Shown here one piece after another: positions 19,216-64,000 of a stretch of 64,000 bases of DNA. The stretch is from NCBI GenBank assembly GCA_934153945.1, contig CAKPFM010000004.1, forward strand, positions 34,469 to 98,468, in the 5' to 3' direction. The notes under the pieces were generated by a model. It made no database searches, was not told where the DNA came from, and saw nothing but the letters and a program-made list of their open reading frames with translations. This DNA is from an uncultured Bacilli bacterium (GTDB lineage: Bacteria > Bacillota_I > Bacilli_A > RF39 > UBA660). Position 1 is the stretch's first letter. Each line of letters opens with the position of its first letter. The translations under genes and the position numbers were made by a program.

Positions 19216-20292
19216 ATGAAAAGAAAAGGATTTACGCTTGTGGAGTTATTAGCGGTAATAGTAATATTATCGGTAATAGCGTTAATCGCAACACCAATGA
19301 TATTAAACATAATAGAAGAAACCAAAAAAAGAAGCCTCGAAAATAGTGTTAAAGGACTATTAGAAGCATCAAATTATTTTGCAATAGAAAATAATGGAGT
19401 ATATGAATTTATATTTGATGAAACACATAAAGGAACAACAAAACAAGGAGAAAGATTAGATTATAAAGGAGAACTAGATGCAAAAGGAAAACTATATATA
19501 GATGAAGAAGGAGATATAAGTTTATGTGTATATAATGATAAATACTATGCATATAAAAATTATAATAGTGGAGTAATAATAGGAGAAAAAAGTAAAGATA
19601 ATTGTAATATAGATTATGATGGATTAACAAATAAGTATGTAGCTTACTTAGAAAGCGAAGGAATGAGTAGTAATGTATATACGAAAGAAGAAGTAAATGA
19701 ATTAGTTAGTAATTTAACAACAGAAATAAGTAGTTTAAAAAATAAAATTGAAGAATTAGAAAGCAATAATTATGCAACCAAGGAAGAATTAACAAATACA
19801 AGTGATAATTTAACAAATACAATTAATGAAAATAAAGCAAACATTGATAGTGTAAAAAATGGTTTAAATGAATATGCATTAAAAAGTGAATTAAGTAATA
19901 CAAATAATAATTTGATAACTACTAACAGTAATTTAGATGCTTTGACTAGTATTGTTAATAATAATAAATCTAATATAAATAATTTATCTACAAGCATTAA
20001 TAGTATAAAAGCACAAATTGGAACAAATTTTTATTCATTTAGTTATGATACCGGAGTACGTGGTTCAGAAATAACAAATGATATGATTATCAATGCATTA
20101 AAAATGGTTCCAGCCTCTTCAACATTTTTTGTTGTATATTTTAAATGTTTAGAAGGACAAAATGCTTCCTTAATTGGTTATAATTTGGGTAAGGAATATG
20201 GAACAGGATTATACTTTAATTACTATACTTCATCTTTAGTTTATAAATGGAAAAGTGAACTATATAATATAACATTAACTGAAGTTAAATAA
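19216..20292 (+). CDS. Prepilin-type (class III signal) N-terminal domain protein, paralog 1
   Basis: MKRKG|FTLVELLAVIVIL... with G-1/F+1/E+5 and a hydrophobic helix. AAGGAGA RBS. 358 aa, with an Asn-rich coiled region and a C-terminal globular part. Confidence 0.75.
   Translation: MKRKGFTLVELLAVIVILSVIALIATPMILNIIEETKKRSLENSVKGLLEASNYFAIENNGVYEFIFDETHKGTTKQGERLDYKGELDAKGKLYIDEEGDISLCVYNDKYYAYKNYNSGVIIGEKSKDNCNIDYDGLTNKYVAYLESEGMSSNVYTKEEVNELVSNLTTEISSLKNKIEELESNNYATKEELTNTSDNLTNTINENKANIDSVKNGLNEYALKSELSNTNNNLITTNSNLDALTSIVNNNKSNINNLSTSINSIKAQIGTNFYSFSYDTGVRGSEITNDMIINALKMVPASSTFFVVYFKCLEGQNASLIGYNLGKEYGTGLYFNYYTSSLVYKWKSELYNITLTEVK
19250..19319 (+). repeat. 70-nt segment that is near-identical (1 mismatch) to 62488-62557
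   Basis: By direct comparison, the 5' coding region of pilin-like paralogs 1 and 3 is almost the same. Confidence 0.85.
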
Positions 20293-23737: not shown

Positions 23738-23742
23738 AAGAG

Positions 23743-23769
23743 TAAGTCTTGAAAAAGACTTATTTTTTT
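23743..23769 (+). terminator. Intrinsic terminator; the 27-nt sequence is identical to 35231-35257
   Basis: taagtctt-gaaa-aagactta followed by T7. Confidence 0.7.
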
Positions 23770-23851
23770 GTTAAAATAAAAGTATAAATAGTAAATGAAA
23801 GATTTATAATGATACTAAATTCATTATTTTTATATTGAAAGGGTGTTAATA

Positions 23852-26800
23852 ATGAAAAGAAATGGATTTACGTTGATAGAATTATTAGCTGTTATAGTAA
23901 TATTATCGGTAATATCATTAATAACGATACCAATTGTAACAGGTGTGATAGATACATCAAGAAGAAATAGTTTTAAAGTAACATGTATGGAAATATATGA
24001 TTCATATGATACCTATGTTGTTGCAAATGATTCAATAGGAAAAAATAATTCAAATATTATATTTGATTTTTCAAGTAAAAGGCAAAATACAGAAATAATA
24101 GGGGATATTAAATATGAACCAGTAAGTAAATTGTATTTAAAAGGTGAATTACCTAATAATGGAAAATATCAAATAAAAAATGATAAAAGAACACTAAAAG
24201 CAGATAATGGAAGATATACATGTGTAATTGATGAAAATAGAAGTGAGATATTAGGTGGAACTGTAGAAGAAAATGATACAACAGCTCCAGTAATAAATGA
24301 TGTAGTAATAACAAGTACAACAAATAGTATAAAAGTAGTAGTGGATGCTATAGAAGAAGATGGAGTGATTGCTAAATATTATTATAAATTTAATGGAGAA
24401 GAAATAGTAAGTGAAAATAATAGTAAAACATACACTAATTTAAAAGCAAATGAAGAGTATGAGATAGAAGTAGTAGTAGAAAATAAAAGTGGATTAAAGA
24501 GTAATAAAGTAGTTAAAAAGATAATGACAAAAAGTGTTTCAAATCCAACAATCAAACAGACAGTGCAAACACCAAGTAGTGGATATAGTTATGCACAATC
24601 AAGAACAATTCAAATTACATATAGTAATACAAATGTAAATAGTCCAGTATATTACTTCAAATCAAGTGTAGGAGCAACAGTAGCTAGTGGAGTAGTAACA
24701 GCATCATGTGGAACAGGAACAAATCCAGGAACATGTACAAGTTCAAGTGTAACAACAATAGTAGCTAATACATGGTATAAAACAACAAGTACAACACCAA
24801 GTGTAATATATAAAGCAAATGGAACATTGTATGCGTTAACAAGTGATGGAGCAAATATATCAGGAACAAGTACATTTACAATAAGTAAGATAGATACAAG
24901 TGCCCCAAGTGCAAGCATGAGTGTAGGAAGTATCAAAACAGATAGAGCAACAATAACAGCGACATGTAGTGATGCACAGTCAGGAATAACAAAATATGAA
25001 TATAGTAAAGATAATGGAACAACATGGATAACAAATGGAACAACAAATAGTTATACATTTACAGGCTTAACAAAAGAAACAAGTTATAAATACAAAATAA
25101 GATGTACGAATGGAAGTGGCTTGACAAAAGAAGCAAGTAGTACAAGTAGTACATTAGGATTTACAAATCCAACAATAAAACAAACGAGTCAAACACCAAC
25201 AAGTGGAACATGGGCAACAAGTAGAACAATTCAAATTACATATAGTAATACGAATGTAACAAGTCCAGTATATTACTTCAAATCAAGTGTAGGAGCAACA
25301 GTAGCTAGTGGAGTAGTAACAGCTGCGTGTGGAACAGGAACAAATCCAGGAACATGTACAAGTTCAAATATAACAACATTAGTAGCTAATACATGGTATA
25401 AAACAACAAGTACAACACCAAGTGTAACATATAAAGCAAATGGAACATTGTATGCGTTAACAAGTGATGGAGCAAATATATCAGGAACAAGTACATTTAC
25501 AATAAGTAAGATAGATACAAGTGCCCCAAGTGCAAGCATGAGTGTAGGAAGTATCAAAACAGATAGAGCAACAATAACAGCGACATGTAGTGATGCACAG
25601 TCAGGAATAACAAAATATGAATATAGTAAAGATAATGGAACAACATGGATATCAAATGGAACAACAAATAGTTATACATTTACAGGCTTAACAAAAGAAA
25701 CAAGTTATCAATACAAAATAAGATGTACAAACGGAAGTGGCTTAACAAAAGAAGCAAGTAGTACAAGTAGTACATTAGGATTTACAAATCCAACAATAAA
25801 ACAAACGAGTCAAACACCAAGTAGTGGAACATGGGCAACAAGTAGAACAATTCAAATTACATATAGTAATACAAATGTAAATAGTCCAGTATATTACTTC
25901 AAATCAAGTGTAGGAGCAACAGTAGCTAGTGGAGTAGTAACAGCTGCGTGTGGAACAGGAACAAATCCAGGAACATGTACAAGTTCAAATATAACAACAT
26001 TAGTAGCTAATACATGGTATAAAACAACAAGTACAACACCAAGTGTAATATATAGAGCAAATGGAACATTGTATGCATTAACAAGTGATGGAAAGAATAT
26101 ATCAGGAACAAGTACATTTACAATAAGTAAGATAGATACAAGTGCCCCATCAATATATGCATATTCTGGAACAATGTTATATCAGGATCCATATTTCACT
26201 TTGGGAACTAATAGTACTAGTATTTATAATAATTTAGGAAATGGAACAGTAACAATTACTAGAAAAGAAATGTCAGGAACATATTATGGATATGGAATTG
26301 AAATATCAACAACAGGAACAGCAAGTCCAGGACATGGTGGTTTCACTTTCTATACAGTATCAGCTGCCAATAAGGAACTTATTACAATAATAAATGCGAA
26401 AATACCAGTAGGATATCAAATAAACTGGGCTTCAAATGAAGTAGGTAATGGTGGAGTATTTGAATGGTTAACCAGTCAAGCAGGAACCGGAAATTGGCAA
26501 ACATATATATTTAGATTAAAATGCGGTTCAAGTGGAACATTTGCAACAACAAATTTCTTCTATTTAACAGGTGGATCAACAGCAACAACATCTTCCCCAG
26601 TAACATGGCAAGTCCAATTAGCAACAACAATAGATACAACAAAATATGGAGCAAGTAATTTTATAGTATTTGCAGGAAAAGATACAGAAAGCGGAGTAGC
26701 AGCATTTGGGGTAAATCAAAGTAGTACTACAGAACCATCATGGACAGCAACAAATGTTGGATGGTGGGCAGGTGGATATACATCAAATAGAACATATTAT

Positions 26801-28105
26801 GTATGGATAAAGGATGCACTAGATAATGTAAGTAAAGTACCTGTGACATTAAGTTATATAGATAATGTAACAACTCCAACAGTAACATACAATGGAGGAA
26901 GTAATAGTCATAGTTGGAAGAACAACTATAATATAACATTAACATCAACAGCTACAAGTGGAATACATCATTATGAAGTAGATTGGGATGGAGATGGAAT
27001 AGCAAATCAAACTATAACTAGTAATTTTATACCATGGGATGGATATTCATCATGTAATAATAGATTTAGAGCAGTAAGTAATAATGGTGTAGAAAGCGCT
27101 TGGACAAGTTCTCATGATATCCACATGGATACAAGCGCACCAGGAGCAACAACAATAACGTATAATGGTGGAGCAAATACATGTATATGGAAAAATAACT
27201 ATAATTTGACATTAACGTCAACGGATAATGTAGGAGTTTCATATTATCAAATAGATACAAATAATGATGGAGTGGCAGATACAACAGTAGGAAGTAGTTT
27301 TATTCCAACAAATGGATGGAGTACATGTACTGCAAGATTTAGAGCAGTAGATGGTGCTGGAAATGTTGGACCATGGACAGAAAAGCAACATATCCACATG
27401 GATACAGAAAAACCAGTACATACAAATTGGTGGTGGGGAGAAGTTACTAAAGATGTGGCAAGATTATATGTTCAAGCAACAGATAATGTAGGATTACCAG
27501 CTAATGCAACAACATACGATGGACATAATGCAGGAGTGTACTGTCCAACCTCAACACAAAGTGGCGGATATACAAACTTTGTATGGTTTAAAGGAAATTG
27601 GGACGCGAGTGCAAATGCATATAGATGTGATATAACGCCAAGTACTTTTGGACACTATGGACAAACATATAGAACACATTTATACATATATGATTATGTA
27701 GGAAATGGTGGATACTATAATGCAACATCAGTAAATATACCAACACCTAGTTATGCAGCAACAAATTCAAGTTATGCGGCAACTCCTAATACAACAACTT
27801 ATCCAACACAACCTACTGGAGAAACATATCGTTGTTGTTGGCATATAAGTAGTGCTAATGCATCAAAGAGTCAATGTGCTAGTGATACTATTGTAGATTA
27901 TGAAGATGGAAGTGGAAGATGGGAATGCGATCAATGTAGTACCTGTCCTAGAAAAGCATGTACAAATGGAGGAACGCAAAATGGTGATATTTGTACAAAG
28001 ACTGAATATACATGTCCAAATGGAGGAACTTTAAGTGGAACGACATGTGTCTTATATACATGTCCAAATGGAGGAACCTTAAGTGGAACAACATGTGTCA
28101 AATAA
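23852..28105 (+). CDS. Giant prepilin-type N-terminal domain protein, paralog 2, with FN3-like and tandem repeat modules and a Cys-rich C-terminus
   Basis: ATG at 23852 after an AAGGGTG RBS. MKRNG|FTLIELLAVIVIL. About 1417 aa, very rich in Thr/Ser/Gly/Asn. Confidence 0.8.
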   Translation: MKRNGFTLIELLAVIVILSVISLITIPIVTGVIDTSRRNSFKVTCMEIYDSYDTYVVANDSIGKNNSNIIFDFSSKRQNTEIIGDIKYEPVSKLYLKGELPNNGKYQIKNDKRTLKADNGRYTCVIDENRSEILGGTVEENDTTAPVINDVVITSTTNSIKVVVDAIEEDGVIAKYYYKFNGEEIVSENNSKTYTNLKANEEYEIEVVVENKSGLKSNKVVKKIMTKSVSNPTIKQTVQTPSSGYSYAQSRTIQITYSNTNVNSPVYYFKSSVGATVASGVVTASCGTGTNPGTCTSSSVTTIVANTWYKTTSTTPSVIYKANGTLYALTSDGANISGTSTFTISKIDTSAPSASMSVGSIKTDRATITATCSDAQSGITKYEYSKDNGTTWITNGTTNSYTFTGLTKETSYKYKIRCTNGSGLTKEASSTSSTLGFTNPTIKQTSQTPTSGTWATSRTIQITYSNTNVTSPVYYFKSSVGATVASGVVTAACGTGTNPGTCTSSNITTLVANTWYKTTSTTPSVTYKANGTLYALTSDGANISGTSTFTISKIDTSAPSASMSVGSIKTDRATITATCSDAQSGITKYEYSKDNGTTWISNGTTNSYTFTGLTKETSYQYKIRCTNGSGLTKEASSTSSTLGFTNPTIKQTSQTPSSGTWATSRTIQITYSNTNVNSPVYYFKSSVGATVASGVVTAACGTGTNPGTCTSSNITTLVANTWYKTTSTTPSVIYRANGTLYALTSDGKNISGTSTFTISKIDTSAPSIYAYSGTMLYQDPYFTLGTNSTSIYNNLGNGTVTITRKEMSGTYYGYGIEISTTGTASPGHGGFTFYTVSAANKELITIINAKIPVGYQINWASNEVGNGGVFEWLTSQAGTGNWQTYIFRLKCGSSGTFATTNFFYLTGGSTATTSSPVTWQVQLATTIDTTKYGASNFIVFAGKDTESGVAAFGVNQSSTTEPSWTATNVGWWAGGYTSNRTYYVWIKDALDNVSKVPVTLSYIDNVTTPTVTYNGGSNSHSWKNNYNITLTSTATSGIHHYEVDWDGDGIANQTITSNFIPWDGYSSCNNRFRAVSNNGVESAWTSSHDIHMDTSAPGATTITYNGGANTCIWKNNYNLTLTSTDNVGVSYYQIDTNNDGVADTTVGSSFIPTNGWSTCTARFRAVDGAGNVGPWTEKQHIHMDTEKPVHTNWWWGEVTKDVARLYVQATDNVGLPANATTYDGHNAGVYCPTSTQSGGYTNFVWFKGNWDASANAYRCDITPSTFGHYGQTYRTHLYIYDYVGNGGYYNATSVNIPTPSYAATNSSYAATPNTTTYPTQPTGETYRCCWHISSANASKSQCASDTIVDYEDGSGRWECDQCSTCPRKACTNGGTQNGDICTKTEYTCPNGGTLSGTTCVLYTCPNGGTLSGTTCVK
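24542..26150 (+). repeat. About 2.6 tandem copies of a 621/624-bp near-identical unit inside the CDS
   Basis: Copies start at 24542, 25166 and 25787. The antisense ORFs 24652-24936 and 25273-25557 translate almost identically. Confidence 0.85.
26868..27410 (+). repeat. Two divergent copies of a roughly 270-bp module
   Basis: Repeated TYNGG.N..W.NNYN.TLTST...RFRAV...HMDT pattern. Confidence 0.5.
28004..28096 (+). repeat. Two 45-48-nt direct repeats encoding YTCPNGGTLSGTTCV
   Basis: At the extreme C-terminus; a degenerate third copy lies upstream. Confidence 0.8.
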
Positions 28106-28126: not shown

Positions 28127-28534
28127 ATGAAAAGAACAATAAAAACATTATTAATAGGAATATTCACAATCAGTTTAATAACTGGTTGTGGATGTAGTAA
28201 AAAAGAGGAAGAACCAAAAGAAGAAATAAAAGCAAATACAAATGAAGAAGTAATAAAAGATCAAAAAGTAGAAGAATTTGAGCTAAAAAATACATCTTTA
28301 ATATATGAAGATGGAAATACAACATTAGAAACAACAGTAACAAATACATCAGAAAAAGATACATACTTAAAAGAATTTGATATCCAAGTATTAGATAAAG
28401 ATGGAAATGAAGTGGTAGTATTAAAAGGATTTGTTGGAGAACAAATGAAAGCAGGAGAATCAAGAGTAATAAATAGTTACTATAATGAAGATTTAAGTAC
28501 TGCTACTAAAATAGTTTATACAGTTATAAGATAA
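28127..28534 (+). CDS. Small lipoprotein, probably cotranscribed with the giant pilin-like gene
   Basis: 22-bp gap after the pilin-like gene. Lipobox LITGC. Confidence 0.6.
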   Translation: MKRTIKTLLIGIFTISLITGCGCSKKEEEPKEEIKANTNEEVIKDQKVEEFELKNTSLIYEDGNTTLETTVTNTSEKDTYLKEFDIQVLDKDGNEVVVLKGFVGEQMKAGESRVINSYYNEDLSTATKIVYTVIR

Positions 28535-52073: not shown

Positions 52074-54182
52074 ATGAATATAGGAAATATTTATGATAAT
52101 CAAGAAGAAGATGTTTTAAGTAAATATGGACGTAATATTATAGAACTTGCTAAAGCGGGGAAAATTGATCCAGTTATTGGTAGGGATGAAGAAATAAGAA
52201 GTATTACAAGAGTTTTATCCCGTAAAACAAAAAATAATCCAGTACTAATAGGTGAAGCTGGAGTAGGTAAAACCGCTATAGTAGAAGGTTTAGCTTTACG
52301 TATCGTAAAAGGTGATGTACCAGAATCATTAAAAAATAAAACAATCTGGGAACTAGATATGGGTGCTTTAATAGCAGGAGCTAAATATAGAGGAGAATTT
52401 GAAGAAAGACTAAAAGCAGTACTAAAGAAAATAAAAGAATCAGATGGTAATATCATTATGTTTATTGATGAAATCCACATGATTGTTGGAAATAGTGCTG
52501 AAGGTAGTGTAGATACATCAAATATGTTAAAACCACTTCTAGCTAGGGGTGAAATAAAAGTAATTGGTGCTACCACATTAAATGAATATAGAAAATACAT
52601 AGAAAAAGATAGTGCTCTAGAAAGAAGATTTGAAAGAGTATTAGTAAATGCTCCAAGTGTTGAAGATACTATTACAATTTTAAGAGGTTTAAAACCAAGA
52701 TTTGAATTATTCCATGGAGTAACTATTAAAGATAAAGCATTAATAGCAGCAGCAACTTTATCAGATAGATATATAACAGATAGATTTTTACCAGATAAAG
52801 CAATTGATTTAGTAGATGAAGCTTGTGCTACTATAAAAGTTCAAATGGATTCAGTACCTTTTGAACTAGATAGTTTAACAAGAAAAATAATGGGACTTGA
52901 AATAGAATTAGAGGCAATCAAAAAAGATAAAGATGAAATGTCTAAAAAAAGAGTTTTAGCTATAAAAGATGAAGTAGCTATTTTAAGAAAAAAAGAACAA
53001 GAATTAAAAGGATCTTGGGAAGAAGAAAAGAAATTAAAAGAAACAATTAATAAAAAGAAAGATGAATTAGAAAGAAATAAGTTTTTACTTGAACAAGCTG
53101 AAAATAATTATGATTTAGAAACAGCAGCTCGTATTAAACATGGTGTAATACCTACTTTAGAACAAGAATTAGAAAATTTGAAAAAACAAGATAATTATAA
53201 ATTATTAAGTGATTCAGTAACAGAAGAAGATATAGCAAAAGTAATATCTAAAATGACAAATATTCCAATTCAAAAATTAGTAGGTGGAGAAAGAGAAAAA
53301 TTATTACATTTAAAAGAAAACATGGAAAAAAGAGTAATGGGTCAAGATGAAGCTATAAGTAAAGTAAGTTCAGCTATAATAAGAGCAAGAGCAGGTATTA
53401 AAGATCCAAATAGACCAATTGGTTCATTTATCTTTTTAGGTCCAACTGGAGTAGGTAAAACAGAAGTAGCTAAGACACTAGCAAGCGAACTATTTGATGA
53501 TGAAAGACACATTATAAGAATTGATATGAGTGAATACATGGAAGCTTACAATGTTTCAAGATTAATTGGTGCTCCTCCAGGATATGTAGGATATGATGAA
53601 GGTGGACAATTAACTGAAAAAGTAAGAAGAAATCCATATAGTATAGTTTTGTTTGATGAAATAGAAAAAGCCCATCCAGATGTATTTAATATATTGTTAC
53701 AAATACTAGATGATGGTAGAATAACTGATTCACAAGGTAGAACAGTAGACTTTAAAAATACGATTATTATAATGACATCTAATTTAGGTAGTGAATATAT
53801 TTTAGATAATAAAGAAAATAGTAATGAATTAGTAATGAATGAATTAAAACATACATTTAAACCAGAATTTATAAATCGTATAGATGAAATAATTATATTT
53901 AATCCATTAGCTAAAAAAGTAGTTTATAATATTGTTGATAAATTATTAAATGAATTAGAATTAAGATTAAAAGATAAATTAATTAAAATAGATATAACTG
54001 ATAAAGCTAAAGACTTTATTGTAGATAATGCTTATGATGAATCATTTGGTGCTAGACCTATAAAAAGATATATTGTAAGTAATATCGAAAACTTAATTGC
54101 AAGTAAAATAATTAATGATGAAATTAAATATAATAGTACTATTTTAATAGATATAGAAAATGATAAATTCATAATAAAATAA
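52074..54182 (+). CDS. clpB: ClpB-type AAA+ disaggregase lacking the N-terminal domain
   Basis: Two Walker A motifs ([18 protein letters not shown]), a long coiled-coil M-domain, and no ClpP-docking IGF loop. 702 aa, starting where canonical ClpB NBD1 begins. Confidence 0.8.
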
Positions 54183-62453: not shown

Positions 62454-64000
62454 ATGAAAAGAAAAGGATTTACGTTGATTGAACTACTAGCGGTAATAGT
62501 AATATTATCGGTAATAGCGTTAATCACAACACCAATGATATTAAACATAATAGAAGAGACAAGAAAGAAAGCATCAATAGAAAGTGTAAACGGAATATTA
62601 GATGCAGCAGAGAAATATGAAATAACAAGCATGTTAGAAGGAGAAGAAACAAGAAGGTTTGAGTTTCCAAATGAGAAATTACAATATAAAGGAACAAAAC
62701 CAGAAAGTGGAACACTAATAATAGATGAAGAAGGAAATACAAGTATAACAGTATTAATAAATGGATACTGTGTAAGAAAGAGATTTAATGAAACAACACC
62801 AAGTGTAATAGAAGAAAAAAATTGTACAATAGAAGATAGTGAATTAATATATGCAGAAAGATATAAAGAAGAAATATTAAATGGAGCATATCCAGAAATA
62901 AAGAATGAATTAATACCAGTAACAATAGAAAGTAATGGAACAGTAACATATGCAGATATAAGAAAAGAATGGTATAGTTATAAAAATAAGATATGGGCAA
63001 ATGCCGTAATATTAAAAGATAATGTAACACATAGTGTAGGAGAGGTAATACCAGAAAGTGATATAAAACAATATTATGTATGGATACCAAGATATAAATA
63101 TGAATTATGGAATGTAAATGGAGAAAATAAATATCCAAATGGAACAAGTTCAGAAAGTGCGATAAATATAGTATTTGAAAGTAAAGATAAAGAAACAAGT
63201 AATGGAACTGAAAATGGAGAATGGTTAACACATCCAGCGTTTACATCATTTAATACGAATGGAATATGGGTAGGAAAATATGAAACAAGTTATGATGAAG
63301 AAACATATACAGATTCAAGTAAGTTTCTAACTACAAATCCAAATTATGCAGCAGCTACAAATGCTTCAAATATAATAATAAAACCAAATGTAAGAAGTTT
63401 AACAAACAAAAAAGTAAGTGAATTTTATACATTAGGAAGAGGAATAAATGAAGGATTAAACTCACATATGATGAAAAATAGTGAATGGGGAGCAGTATCA
63501 TATTTAACATATTCATTATTCGGAAAATGTACAGAAACAGGATGTGAAGAAGTATATCTAAATAATATCAATACAGGGTATTTAAATAGTACAGCAACAT
63601 TTACAGGACAGTGGCAATATAGCGGAAGTATAACAGGATGTAGTGCATCAAGTACTTCGGCAACTGTAAATAGTAATCAATCATCATGTTCAAGTGGCTA
63701 TGCATATAATGAAGCAAATAATAAAGCAAGTACAACAGGAAACATAAGTGGAATCTATGATATGAGTGGAGGAAACTGGGAATATGTAATGGGAGTAATA
63801 AAAGATGCATCAGGTAATCCAATGAGTGGAATAAATAGTACATACAATTCAGGATTTAATGGAACATATGGATGTCCAACATGTAATAGTGATACATCAG
63901 GATTAACAAGTTTAACAACAGGAATAAATTTTCCAACAGATACAAGATATTATGATTTATATGCACCAAACTCAACAGAGTTAGGTGATGATACATGGTA
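62454..64000 (+). CDS. Prepilin-type N-terminal domain protein, paralog 3; runs off the 3' end of the window
   Basis: MKRKG|FTLIELLAVIVIL. GAGGAG RBS. More than 515 aa. Internal motifs WLTHPAF, GIWVGKYE, EWGAVSYL, GIYDMSGGNWEY. Confidence 0.75.
   Translation, partial: MKRKGFTLIELLAVIVILSVIALITTPMILNIIEETRKKASIESVNGILDAAEKYEITSMLEGEETRRFEFPNEKLQYKGTKPESGTLIIDEEGNTSITVLINGYCVRKRFNETTPSVIEEKNCTIEDSELIYAERYKEEILNGAYPEIKNELIPVTIESNGTVTYADIRKEWYSYKNKIWANAVILKDNVTHSVGEVIPESDIKQYYVWIPRYKYELWNVNGENKYPNGTSSESAINIVFESKDKETSNGTENGEWLTHPAFTSFNTNGIWVGKYETSYDEETYTDSSKFLTTNPNYAAATNASNIIIKPNVRSLTNKKVSEFYTLGRGINEGLNSHMMKNSEWGAVSYLTYSLFGKCTETGCEEVYLNNINTGYLNSTATFTGQWQYSGSITGCSASSTSATVNSNQSSCSSGYAYNEANNKASTTGNISGIYDMSGGNWEYVMGVIKDASGNPMSGINSTYNSGFNGTYGCPTCNSDTSGLTSLTTGINFPTDTRYYDLYAPNSTELGDDTW

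Follow-up and report, generated by a model that had tools for sequence, protein, structure and literature searches.

Antigenic variation in Neisseria proceeds through segmental, non-reciprocal transfer between paralogous pilin sequences (pilE/pilS), with silent cassettes as donors. For the type IV pilins of S. sanguinis, modular forms have been described in which the added module is of vWA type in PilB and a lectin in PilC (Raynaud et al. 2021, PMC8179133). PilB has a mass of 50.5 kDa, the largest modular pilin noted in that paper has 860 residues, and FN3 (IPR003961) is among the top 15 extra domains of its modular-pilin survey (PMC8179133). Periscope Proteins, for example SasG, Rib and Sgo_0707, were treated in a paper from which pilins are absent (Whelan et al. 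2021, PMC8201768). The fibrillar adhesins of Firmicutes usually carry their adhesive domain N-terminally and their anchor C-terminally (Monzon et al. 2021, PMC8286594). Both ingredients of the locus described here, modular pilins and stalks of variable length, are already known.

The window analysed here, 64,000 nt of DNA from an uncultured Bacilli bacterium, holds a gene for a prepilin-type protein with features of each of these systems. As in modular pilins, a class III signal and a small pilin module form the N-terminus and functional modules follow C-terminally, the host is a monoderm, and glycan binding is predicted for a module of lectin or CBM type. Unlike in these, 11 further beta-domains and a Cys-rich tail extend the protein to 1417 aa, a long repetitive stalk shows copy-number polymorphism, and the gene lies outside a pilus locus, has many cassette-sharing paralogues per genome and is known from sequence alone. 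With Periscope Proteins it shares tandem repeats, highly identical at the DNA level, which encode folded beta domains and vary in number between strains, a presumed functional region at the far end and, with SasG in particular, a di-domain alternation resembling the G5-E repeats. However, its anchor is an N-terminal pilin module instead of a C-terminal LPXTG, so that the topology is reversed, it has only 2.6 units, and its variation is known from metagenome assemblies only. Like fibrillar adhesins it is a single-chain, presumably extracellular protein with an Ig/FN3-like stalk and a terminal putative binding region, but no catalogued adhesive or anchor domain was found in it, and its layout with the anchor at the N-terminus is opposite to that of the Firmicutes members (PMC8286594).

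The gene and its domains

The features around and within the gene are the following (window coordinates, strand in brackets):

23749..23777 (+) promoter-like site TTGAAA-17-TAAAAT, TG-extended; consensus match only
23837..23845 (+) ribosome binding site GAAAGGGTG, 6 nt 5' of ATG 23852; read directly
23852..28105 (+) CDS, stop included, of the 1417-aa modular prepilin-type protein; from homologue starts and ribosome binding site
23852..24277 (+) Module N, aa 1-142, pilin module: class III signal peptide, hydrophobic alpha-1 helix, small beta-sheet
24278..24541 (+) Module f, aa 143-230, divergent FN3-like beta-sandwich; weak fn3/PKD matches, AF2, Foldseek
24542..24910 (+) unit A, domain X1, aa 231-353, beta-sandwich, CGTGTNPGTC loop invariant, without Pfam family
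24652..24936 (-) antisense ORF in unit A, 94 aa, TTG start, wholly within a sense frame that is conserved and backed by structure
24911..25165 (+) unit A, domain F1, aa 354-438, FN3/Big_7-like
25166..25531 (+) unit B, domain X2, aa 439-560
25273..25557 (-) antisense ORF in unit B, 94 aa, TTG start, duplicate of that in unit A
25532..25786 (+) unit B, domain F2, aa 561-645
25787..26152 (+) partial unit C, aa 646-767, consisting of domain X3
26153..26656 (+) Module L, aa 768-935, jelly-roll beta-sandwich, CBM4/CBM22-like fold
26657..26869 (+) Module I, aa 936-1006, small Ig-like beta domain, follows L invariably in relatives
26870..27142 (+) Module U1, aa 1007-1097, 91-aa Ig-like unit
27143..27415 (+) Module U2, aa 1098-1188, diverged U1 copy; weak Big_3_2 match
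27416..27742 (+) Module G, aa 1189-1297, weak GBS Bsp-like repeat similarity; PF08481 E 0.0044, below cut-off
27743..28102 (+) tail rich in Cys, aa 1298-1417, with 12 Cys among its final ~90 residues
28127..28534 (+) lipoprotein gene, 135 aa, lipobox LITGC, 21 nt 3' of the pilin stop

The domain order is thus N-f-[X-F]-[X-F]-X-L-I-U-U-G-Cys tail. A list of open reading frames gives the start of the gene as GTG 23843 (to 28105). The true start is ATG 23852; from there, with a ribosome binding site upstream, the protein has 1417 aa, the same length as in an earlier note on this DNA. All homologues have the N-terminus MK(R/K)xGFTLIE in common, and an identical protein (P0001) is held in public collections. 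The promoter-like site overlaps a low-GC hairpin and T-run 3' of the GAPDH stop. The order at the locus is ClpP-PRK-GAPDH-pilin-lipoprotein-ParC, and the same synteny is found in four other loci (L001, L010, L011, L012). The lipoprotein gene is probably co-transcribed with the pilin gene and moves along with it to another locus (L014). Motif and Pfam scans found no gene for a prepilin peptidase, an assembly ATPase or a platform protein in the 64-kb window or the fetched loci; the Pfam scans returned housekeeping genes only, and the pilin gene lies outside any pilus operon.

The class III signal of Module N is canonical, MKRNG/FTLIE with the slash at the predicted cleavage point, after which the sequence reads FTLIELLAVIVILSVISLITIPIV: a short basic leader ending in Gly is followed by F/M-T-L-I-E with Glu at +5 and by ~20 hydrophobic residues. 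The module scores 26.8-30.4 bits against PF07963 (cut-off 21.2) and 28.9 against TIGR02532 (cut-off 16.3), and phmmer matches it to S. sanguinis PilE1 (8pfb_G, E 3.4e-4). AF2 predicts a helix over residues 8-58 and then 6-7 strands up to residue 135 (pLDDT ~82-89), that is, the long alpha-1 helix packed on a beta-sheet domain which defines the pilin fold. C-terminal to it stand FN3-like, CBM-like and Ig-like modules, the arrangement of a modular pilin. The bona fide class III signal and the predicted pilin fold had been missed in the earlier note.

Module f is predicted to be all-beta (pLDDT ~87-93) and is placed by Foldseek within triple-FN3 arrays. According to structure prediction each 621-nt unit encodes two beta-sandwich domains, X and FN3. 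The reading of the second half as FN3-like, made before from the sequence, is supported by profile matches and Foldseek, its score against Pfam fn3 (PF00041) lying under the gathering threshold. That the first half forms a beta-sandwich domain of its own, almost confined to the pilin family, had escaped notice. Every domain of the stalk has an FN3/Ig-like fold whose termini lie at opposite ends, and alignments by Foldseek extend over ~300-335 columns against linear, triple-FN3 arrays, SiiE and GhpA.

Downstream of the stalk, the predicted fold of Module L is the beta-jelly-roll of CBM4/CBM22, with CBMs of xylanases, cellulases and a laminarinase as best structural matches, although the identity to CBMs is only 6-16% and no sequence match exists in Pfam or PDB. 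Conserved W/Y columns are present, and we regard it as a putative glycan-binding module. The two divergent units of about 270 bp given in the earlier note were recovered as U1 and U2, 273 nt each, with 63.4% nucleotide identity and 46 of 91 aa (51%) in common. For Module G, precomputed PF08481 assignments exist on relatives; this family is known from wall-associated streptococcal proteins. The tail is without sequence match in Pfam or PDB. It ends with two YTCPNGGTLSGTTCV hairpin motifs (28007-28051 and 28055-28099, a 48-nt period), preceded by a degenerate copy ACTNGGTQNGDIC (from 27956), and the protein stops 2 residues past the last Cys. The claim that the two 45-nt repeats are exact holds for the peptide and fails for the nucleotides, of which 43 of 45 agree, the two changes being synonymous. 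Of the 366 relatives collected, 26 have the hairpin motif at their very C-terminal end, and with 12 Cys in ~90 residues a disulfide-rich tail is plausible. From the architecture and the CBM-like fold an adhesin role is plausible too.

Repeat units, alleles and paralogues

The count of about 2.6 copies given in the earlier note was reproduced, with units starting at 24542 (624 nt), 25166 (621 nt) and 25787, the third spanning only the first 366 nt. Units A and B differ at 32 of 621 nt and by one 3-nt indel (94.8% identity); 9 codons are changed synonymously and 13 non-synonymously, and the longest identical run is 223 nt. F1 and F2 are 98.0% identical and X2 and X3 96.2%. With ~95-98% identity in tandem, chance is excluded as source of the repeat; Tandem Repeats Finder missed the array because its longest period is 500. 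As in Periscope Proteins, highly identical DNA (98% for the FN3 halves) encodes confidently predicted folds, here in only 2.6 copies. The antisense ORFs, to whose near identity weight had been given, exist but are uninformative, representing the reverse strand of duplicated DNA. As genes they were rejected as a by-product of the repeat within a conserved sense frame.

Stalk length appears to vary by recombination among related strains. Length variation had been anticipated, and orthologous alleles in identical synteny, from human-gut samples, indeed fall into 1417/1415-aa and 1210/1208-aa forms, the latter shorter by exactly one 621-nt unit, all known from metagenome assemblies. In the 1210-aa allele 621 nt are cleanly deleted; the 1208-aa allele keeps an X2-type first domain and hence represents a separate event, so that two different deletion registers are seen. 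The 3X/2F architecture occurs in at least six separate records. In some alleles from other gut metagenome assemblies a Gly-rich module replaces the Cys tail. One locus (L012) is 100% identical to the window in its sampled flanking genes and most of the pilin gene; all 103 differences fall within 24747-25948 and 26999-27517. There F1 equals F2, whereas the two differ at 5 nt in the window, and the U1-U2-G segment, which holds the second cluster, is 98.6% identical to a paralogue in L013. A transfer as in Neisseria would explain this patch in an otherwise identical strain, but here the donors are full-length, apparently expressed paralogues, and the patch could be an assembly artefact. The identity of 95-98% between units and the equality of F1 and F2 in one strain bear out the proposed recent duplication or concerted evolution. 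Altogether the earlier interpretation is partly supported, in duplication, length variation and FN3 fold, and fails in the exactness of the 45-nt repeats and the value of the antisense ORFs.

Among 1.84 billion representative clusters, 182 contain domain X. A prepilin N-terminus is present in 75 of the 105 representatives first recovered with it (72 strictly, 3 by eye), and most of the others resemble fragments; judged by these searches, domain X is nearly restricted to prepilin proteins. Family members are built as N-(f)-[X-F]n-X-variable C-terminus, where n ranges from 1 to about 7, and recent unit duplications recur in other branches. Paralogues at other loci carry cassettes in common with the window pilin, and modules are apparently exchanged with such giant pilin genes elsewhere in the genome, a sharing not mentioned in the earlier note. 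Relatives are as long as 2.4-3.5 kaa.

Proposed display and variation of the protein

We favour, with a probability of about 0.62, a giant modular type IV pilin of which the region studied forms the stalk and distal part, with gain and loss of units and reshuffling of cassettes by recombination. The best reading is a fibrillar adhesin of the "periscope" kind, anchored by its pilin module and made diverse through unequal recombination and gene conversion, whose function we infer. A prepilin peptidase would cleave the signal, leaving the hydrophobic alpha-1 helix to hold the protein either in the membrane or on the tip of a type 4 filament. The beta-sandwich rod would then hold the CBM-like and Ig-like modules and the disulfide-stapled C-terminal hairpins far from the cell, where the distal modules may bind a ligand that bears glycans. 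Because neighbouring units share ~95% DNA identity and contain identical runs of up to 223 nt, unequal homologous recombination could gain or lose whole X-F units; going by how large FN3 domains typically are, each such unit would shift the reach by ~7-8 nm. Gene conversion, among units as well as among paralogues, would shuffle stalk and tip cassettes, and the alternation of two domain types would keep identical domains from ever being adjacent, as in the G5-E repeats of SasG. Against the pilin part of this reading stand the failure to find pilus machinery genes in the 64-kb window or the fetched loci and the mass of ~150 kDa, well above the modular pilins compared; against the periscope part stand the 2.6 copies, far below classic Periscope Proteins, and against glycan binding a CBM likeness confined to the fold.

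The mass is also one of the arguments for a stand-alone anchored fibril instead of a pilus subunit, an alternative that is possible though on balance doubtful. The class III signal and alpha-1 helix would here do no more than fix the protein in the membrane independently of sortase, or tag it for export, for which sugar-binding proteins of Sulfolobus with class III signals are a model, and a monomeric fibrillar adhesin would reach through the wall, the logic of stalk length and cassette exchange being the same. It agrees with this that the gene and its paralogues stand singly among housekeeping genes and never beside pilus genes, that three prepilin ORFs lie within 64 kb, and that published surveys of fibrillar adhesins, in which prepilin signals were not tested, found no known anchor for nearly half of the candidates. 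On the other hand, the signal matches the canonical form throughout, down to Glu5, a residue linked to filament assembly, a related MAG (L003) has a conventional-size 123-aa pilin gene, and characterised modular pilins sit on filaments. Rather unlikely is a role in glycan capture or wall association instead of host adhesion, with the CBM-like and GBS-Bsp-like modules tethering dietary or mucin polysaccharide or polymers of the cell's own wall, in the service of foraging or of organising the envelope, and the stalk as a spacer. The enzymes whose CBMs resemble Module L, the wall-associated proteins with PF08481 and the gut habitat would fit, but neither the protein nor the neighbouring genes contain a catalytic domain, and the swaps of Cys tail and Gly-rich tip between strains suit diversifying surface recognition better than a fixed metabolism.

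It is very improbable that array, copy-number difference and mosaic patches all stem from metagenome assembly and that the true gene structure is different or fixed. The comparison sequences are apparently all metagenome assemblies, with contig names suggesting short-read assemblers (read type unconfirmed), so that this worry is reduced, not eliminated. Some of the related contigs have only 6.7-9.8x coverage, and the mosaic differences fall exactly in paralogue-shared segments; such cassettes and a 95%-identical 621-nt repeat are the places where such assemblers collapse copies or swap paths. However, the 32 differences between full units, with no identical run beyond 223 nt, allow paired reads to resolve them, the 3X/2F form was assembled at least six times and the short form three times, every one carrying SNPs of its own, the registers differ between the two short alleles sequenced, the ORF is intact in every allele, and the unit number varies in the wider family.

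Meaning for the family

More tentatively, the pilin module may be a general N-terminal anchor for a large family of paralogous giant fibrillar proteins (0.8 to over 3 kaa) in an uncultured human-gut lineage of 25% GC, which public records assign to Bacilli, Tenericutes or Mycoplasmatota. X-FN3 stalk units and CBM-like, Ig-like, Cys-hairpin and Gly-rich tips would be duplicated, deleted and copied among paralogues in a cassette-based system of surface variation, in concept a merger of modular pilins, Periscope Proteins and gene conversion of the pilE/pilS type. New are the stalk domain X, almost exclusive to pilin-like proteins, the conserved C-terminal Cys-hairpin cap and a pilin-type anchor for which published fibrillar-adhesin screens did not search. 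In human gut metagenomes both strain-level variation and assembly error are likely to be concentrated at this locus. It becomes testable how a type 4 filament system, or the signal peptide alone, displays a cargo of ~150 kDa and more on a monoderm cell, and whether gut commensals that were never cultured vary their surface through stalk length and cassette exchange.

Architecture of the protein and its repeats

The ORF table lists the focal gene as 23843 (GTG)–28105 on the plus strand. The real start is the ATG at 23852, giving a protein of 1417 aa; it is preceded by a ribosome-binding site, GAAAGGGTG, and, further upstream, by a promoter-like TTGAAA-17-TAAAAT at 23749–23777. Directly past the GAPDH stop a low-GC hairpin (AAGTCTT-GAAAA-AGACTT, 23738–23777) with a T-run resembles a terminator; it was not picked up by the terminator scan and overlaps the -35 element of the promoter-like site.

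The protein starts with a canonical class III (prepilin) signal, MKRNG|FTLIELLAVIVILSVISLITIPIV, for which PF07963 and TIGR02532 each exceed their cut-off scores; phmmer matches this region to the helix at the N-terminus of S. sanguinis PilE1. An AlphaFold2 model of residues 1–438 (mean pLDDT 89.7) predicts the pilin fold, with a helix (8–58) packed against a small beta-sheet, and then three beta-sandwich domains. Each 621-nt unit therefore codes for two different beta-sandwich domains; this structure prediction of the unit, proposed as a check in the earlier note, gives a domain X followed by an FN3-like domain F. X comprises 122–123 aa with an invariant CGTGTNPGTC loop and has no Pfam match, while F, with 85 aa, resembles FN3/Big_7. 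From the N-terminus onward the modules are N, f, X-F, X-F, X, L, I, U, U, G and a Cys-rich tail, where N is the pilin module, f is FN3-like, L a CBM4/22-like jelly roll, I, U1 and U2 are Ig-like and G has a weak similarity to GBS Bsp-like repeats. Within the C-terminal half (aa 646–1417) structure prediction covers L-I alone, and a PDB sequence search with the Cys-rich tail was without match.

The repeat search found three in-register copies at 621-nt spacing. A period of 621 nt is beyond the limit of Tandem Repeats Finder (500), which for that reason did not report the array; it was defined by the repeat search together with our own alignment:

24542–25165, plus strand: unit A, 624 nt
25166–25786, plus strand: unit B, 621 nt
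from 25787, plus strand: third, partial copy, homologous for only 366 nt

Two full units and a 366-nt partial one amount to approximately 2.6 copies, which bears out the 621-bp repeats that had been described within the 1417-aa protein. Units A and B are 94.8% identical, with 32 substitutions and one 3-nt indel; of the codon changes, 9 are synonymous and 13 non-synonymous. The differences are concentrated in the first ~100 nt, and the longest identical run is 223 nt. The FN3 halves F1 and F2 share 98.0% and X2 and X3 96.2% of their nucleotides. Further downstream, U1 (26870–27142) and U2 (27143–27415) are 63.4% identical in DNA and in 46 of 91 amino acids. The 45-nt tail repeats (28007–28051 and 28055–28099, 48-nt period, with a degenerate copy directly upstream) had been called exact; they agree at 43 of 45 nt and are identical as peptides only, the two changes being synonymous. 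Two antisense ORFs noticed earlier do exist, with 94 aa each, but were rejected as genes, being no more than the complement of a coding frame that is duplicated, conserved and structurally supported.

Alleles and paralogues

The gene is located between GAPDH and a lipoprotein gene, with parC next downstream and ClpP, a PRK-family kinase and EzrA upstream:

28127–28534, plus strand: lipoprotein gene, 135 aa, lipobox LITGC, its start 21 nt beyond the pilin stop

The order ClpP-PRK-GAPDH-pilin-lipoprotein-ParC is common to four other contigs (L001, L010, L011, L012) from Hadza and other gut metagenomes, one of which stops within the lipoprotein gene. A phage or plasmid origin was set aside, the context being housekeeping and syntenic in five contigs. 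The flanking genes of the four contigs are 96–100% identical to those of the window, and the pilin alleles between them differ in a modular fashion.

Pilin alleles at the orthologous locus (number of X and F domains in the stalk; C-terminal module; length)
Window and L012: 3X/2F; Cys tail; 1417 aa
L001: 2X/1F; Cys tail; 1210 aa
L011: 2X/1F; Cys tail; 1208 aa
L010 (5001–9629, protein P0123): 3X/2F; 245-aa Gly-rich module, PF12810-type; 1542 aa
P0128 (protein, contig not fetched): 2X/1F; Gly-rich module; 1336 aa

Aligned to the window, the 1210-aa allele shows a clean 621-nt deletion. Since the first stalk domain is of the X1 type in L001 and of the X2 type in L011, the two short alleles that were sequenced do not go back to one event. 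The 3X/2F form occurs independently in three further protein records (P0121, P0122, P0126). The Gly-rich module (PF12810, ALK_LTK_GRD-type), which stands in place of the Cys tail in L010 and P0128, is a tip-module swap between alleles.

Giant pilin genes closely related to the focal one were also found at four other loci:

L008: TopA-pilin-MutS
L009: near PriA, with a second, 900-aa pilin close by
L013: PPDK-Abi2-pilin-DUF2207-SpoVA
L014: Ddl-pilin-lipoprotein-ApbE

The X-F cassettes of these paralogues share ~88–96% DNA identity with the window, whereas alignments from the pilin module onward average only 81–84% in L008, L009 and L013. L014 is 91.6% identical from N to X3, and its homology to the window begins at the start codon and reaches as far as the end of the lipoprotein gene (L014 9709–10116), the Cys tail and lipoprotein gene being 98.5% identical. 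The flanking genes, Ddl and ApbE, are different from those in the window. Pilin and lipoprotein gene appear to have moved as one unit.

L012 is 100% identical to the window in those flanking genes that were sampled and over most of the pilin gene, and its 103 differences are confined to 24747–25948 and 26999–27517. The first cluster covers the X/F repeats, and F1 equals F2 within L012; the second falls in U1-U2-G, a segment that in L012 is 98.6% identical to the L013 paralogue. These patches stem either from gene conversion or from a path swap in the assembly.

The same doubt applies more widely, as repeats and paralogue-shared cassettes are where assemblers go wrong, and the differences in copy number and mosaic structure might be assembly errors. 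The comparison sequences are apparently all metagenome assemblies of unconfirmed read type, some with 7–10x coverage, and it is with this qualification that alleles one 621-nt unit shorter support the copy-number variation for which the earlier note had proposed a check among related strains. Against such errors, however, the units are separated by 32 diagnostic positions, both stalk forms were assembled repeatedly, each with its own SNPs, and the deletions fall in two registers. Moreover, the ORF is intact in all of these alleles; the interruption considered earlier was not seen in them.

Distribution of the family and of domain X

A first homologue search yielded 203 relatives from gut and other metagenomes, nearly all of 0.8–2.4 kaa and with a prepilin N-terminus. 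The few that have a name are annotated as 'prepilin-type N-terminal cleavage/methylation domain-containing protein' in Firmicutes or Bacilli MAGs. Mapping the window modules onto the relatives gave a common plan, N-(f)-[X-F]n-X, in which n ranges from 1 to ~7 and the C-terminal region that follows is variable. Recent unit duplications (X copies at least 90% identical to each other) occur in several branches and have independent origins; in the longest members the units are diverged. In the genome collection all relatives are at most 57% identical to the focal protein, and the nearest species representatives are 'uncultured Bacillales/Bacilli' MAGs, one with three paralogues. A search with L-I as the query returned one protein. 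Set against P0014, the proteins P0132 (807 aa) and P0133 (1013 aa) look like a 1895-aa relative apparently split within the repeat region; this comes from one assembly, a JGI contig of 47 kb, and could reflect a sequencing error, or else a frameshift or stop, which might allow on/off switching.

When X alone served as the query of an exhaustive HMMER search, no more than 182 of 1.84 billion representative clusters were hit. Among the 105 newly recovered representatives, 72 fit a strict pattern for a prepilin N-terminus, three more carry GFTL[AF]E, which we read as prepilin variants, and most of the remainder look like fragments. As a stalk domain, X is thus all but confined to proteins of the pilin type.

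The motif Y-x-C-P-x-G-G-x-L-x-G-x-x-C (28007–28099 in the window) occurs in 26 of 366 collected proteins. In 25 of these, divergent ones included, it is located 2–3 residues from the C-terminus; the sole exception has it 22 residues before the end. The motif has the look of a conserved cap or recognition tag at the terminus.

Two further prepilin-type genes with an architecture unlike the focal one are present in the window (GC content 24.8%):

19216–20292, plus strand: 358 aa, canonical MKRKG|FTLVE signal, coiled-coil at about aa 150–270, then a C-terminal domain; conserved in L010 and L012, where it also precedes the focal gene
62454–64000, plus strand, cut by the window end: >515 aa, a different, Pfam-less body with WIPRYKYE and IWVGKYE motifs

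The source organism is an uncultured inhabitant of the human gut, and NCBI labels the GAPDH cluster as 'Tenericutes/Mycoplasmatota bacterium' MAG. The literature search gave nothing specific on prepilin proteins in RF39-type lineages. Elsewhere in the window, a skipping-rope RNA (RF02924, 51829–51929, plus strand; 39.3 bits, gathering score 36.7 in Rfam) lies upstream of a ClpB-like gene (52074–54182).

Proposed mode of display and of stalk variation

A prepilin peptidase would cleave the protein, as the prepilin signal implies. Thereafter the alpha-1 helix would remain in the membrane or else sit at the base or the tip of a type 4 filament, and the string of beta-sandwiches would form a rod of ~11 domains, keeping the CBM-like, Ig-like and Cys-hairpin modules at a distance from the cell. 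Display on a filament tip is the reading we favour, the analogy being the S. sanguinis modular pilins PilB and PilC (PMC8179133). A serious rival is a stand-alone anchored fibril rather than a filament subunit, for which the scattered, machinery-free contexts of the pilin genes speak. Pilus machinery is absent from the window and from every fetched locus, where scans for the GspE/PilB Walker A and A24 peptidase motifs were negative, and none of the three modular pilins within 64 kb adjoins it. In a related Bacilli MAG, a conventional-size prepilin gene (L003 1078–1449, plus strand, 123 aa) adjoins rpmF and is likewise apart from machinery genes; its product is a candidate for the major pilin of the lineage. 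Adhesion, glycan binding, disulfides and surface exposure of the focal protein we infer entirely.

Unequal homologous recombination would be possible because adjacent X-F units are highly identical in DNA, and could change the stalk in steps of one di-domain unit; the same logic, recombination between DNA-identical repeats, was proposed for the stalk length of Periscope Proteins (PMC8201768). As with the G5-E repeats of SasG, the X/F alternation would prevent identical domains from adjoining one another. The mosaics would be explained by conversion between units as well as between paralogues.

Modular pilins, Periscope Proteins and fibrillar adhesins have all been described. The former are widespread (>1,200 proteins in 264 architectures, FN3 being among the common extra domains), but the largest noted has 860 residues (PMC8179133), compared with 1417 here. 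Pilin anchors go unmentioned in the descriptions of Periscope Proteins and fibrillar adhesins (PMC8201768, PMC8286594), whose Firmicutes topology is opposite to that of the focal protein. Thus, the locus brings together known principles in a combination for which we found no description: a stalk of variable length, built from a pilin-specific domain and anchored by a pilin module, in a multi-paralogue, cassette-sharing family. Tentatively, with a probability of about 0.3, it may represent a cassette-based system of surface variation in which the pilin module serves as a general anchor.
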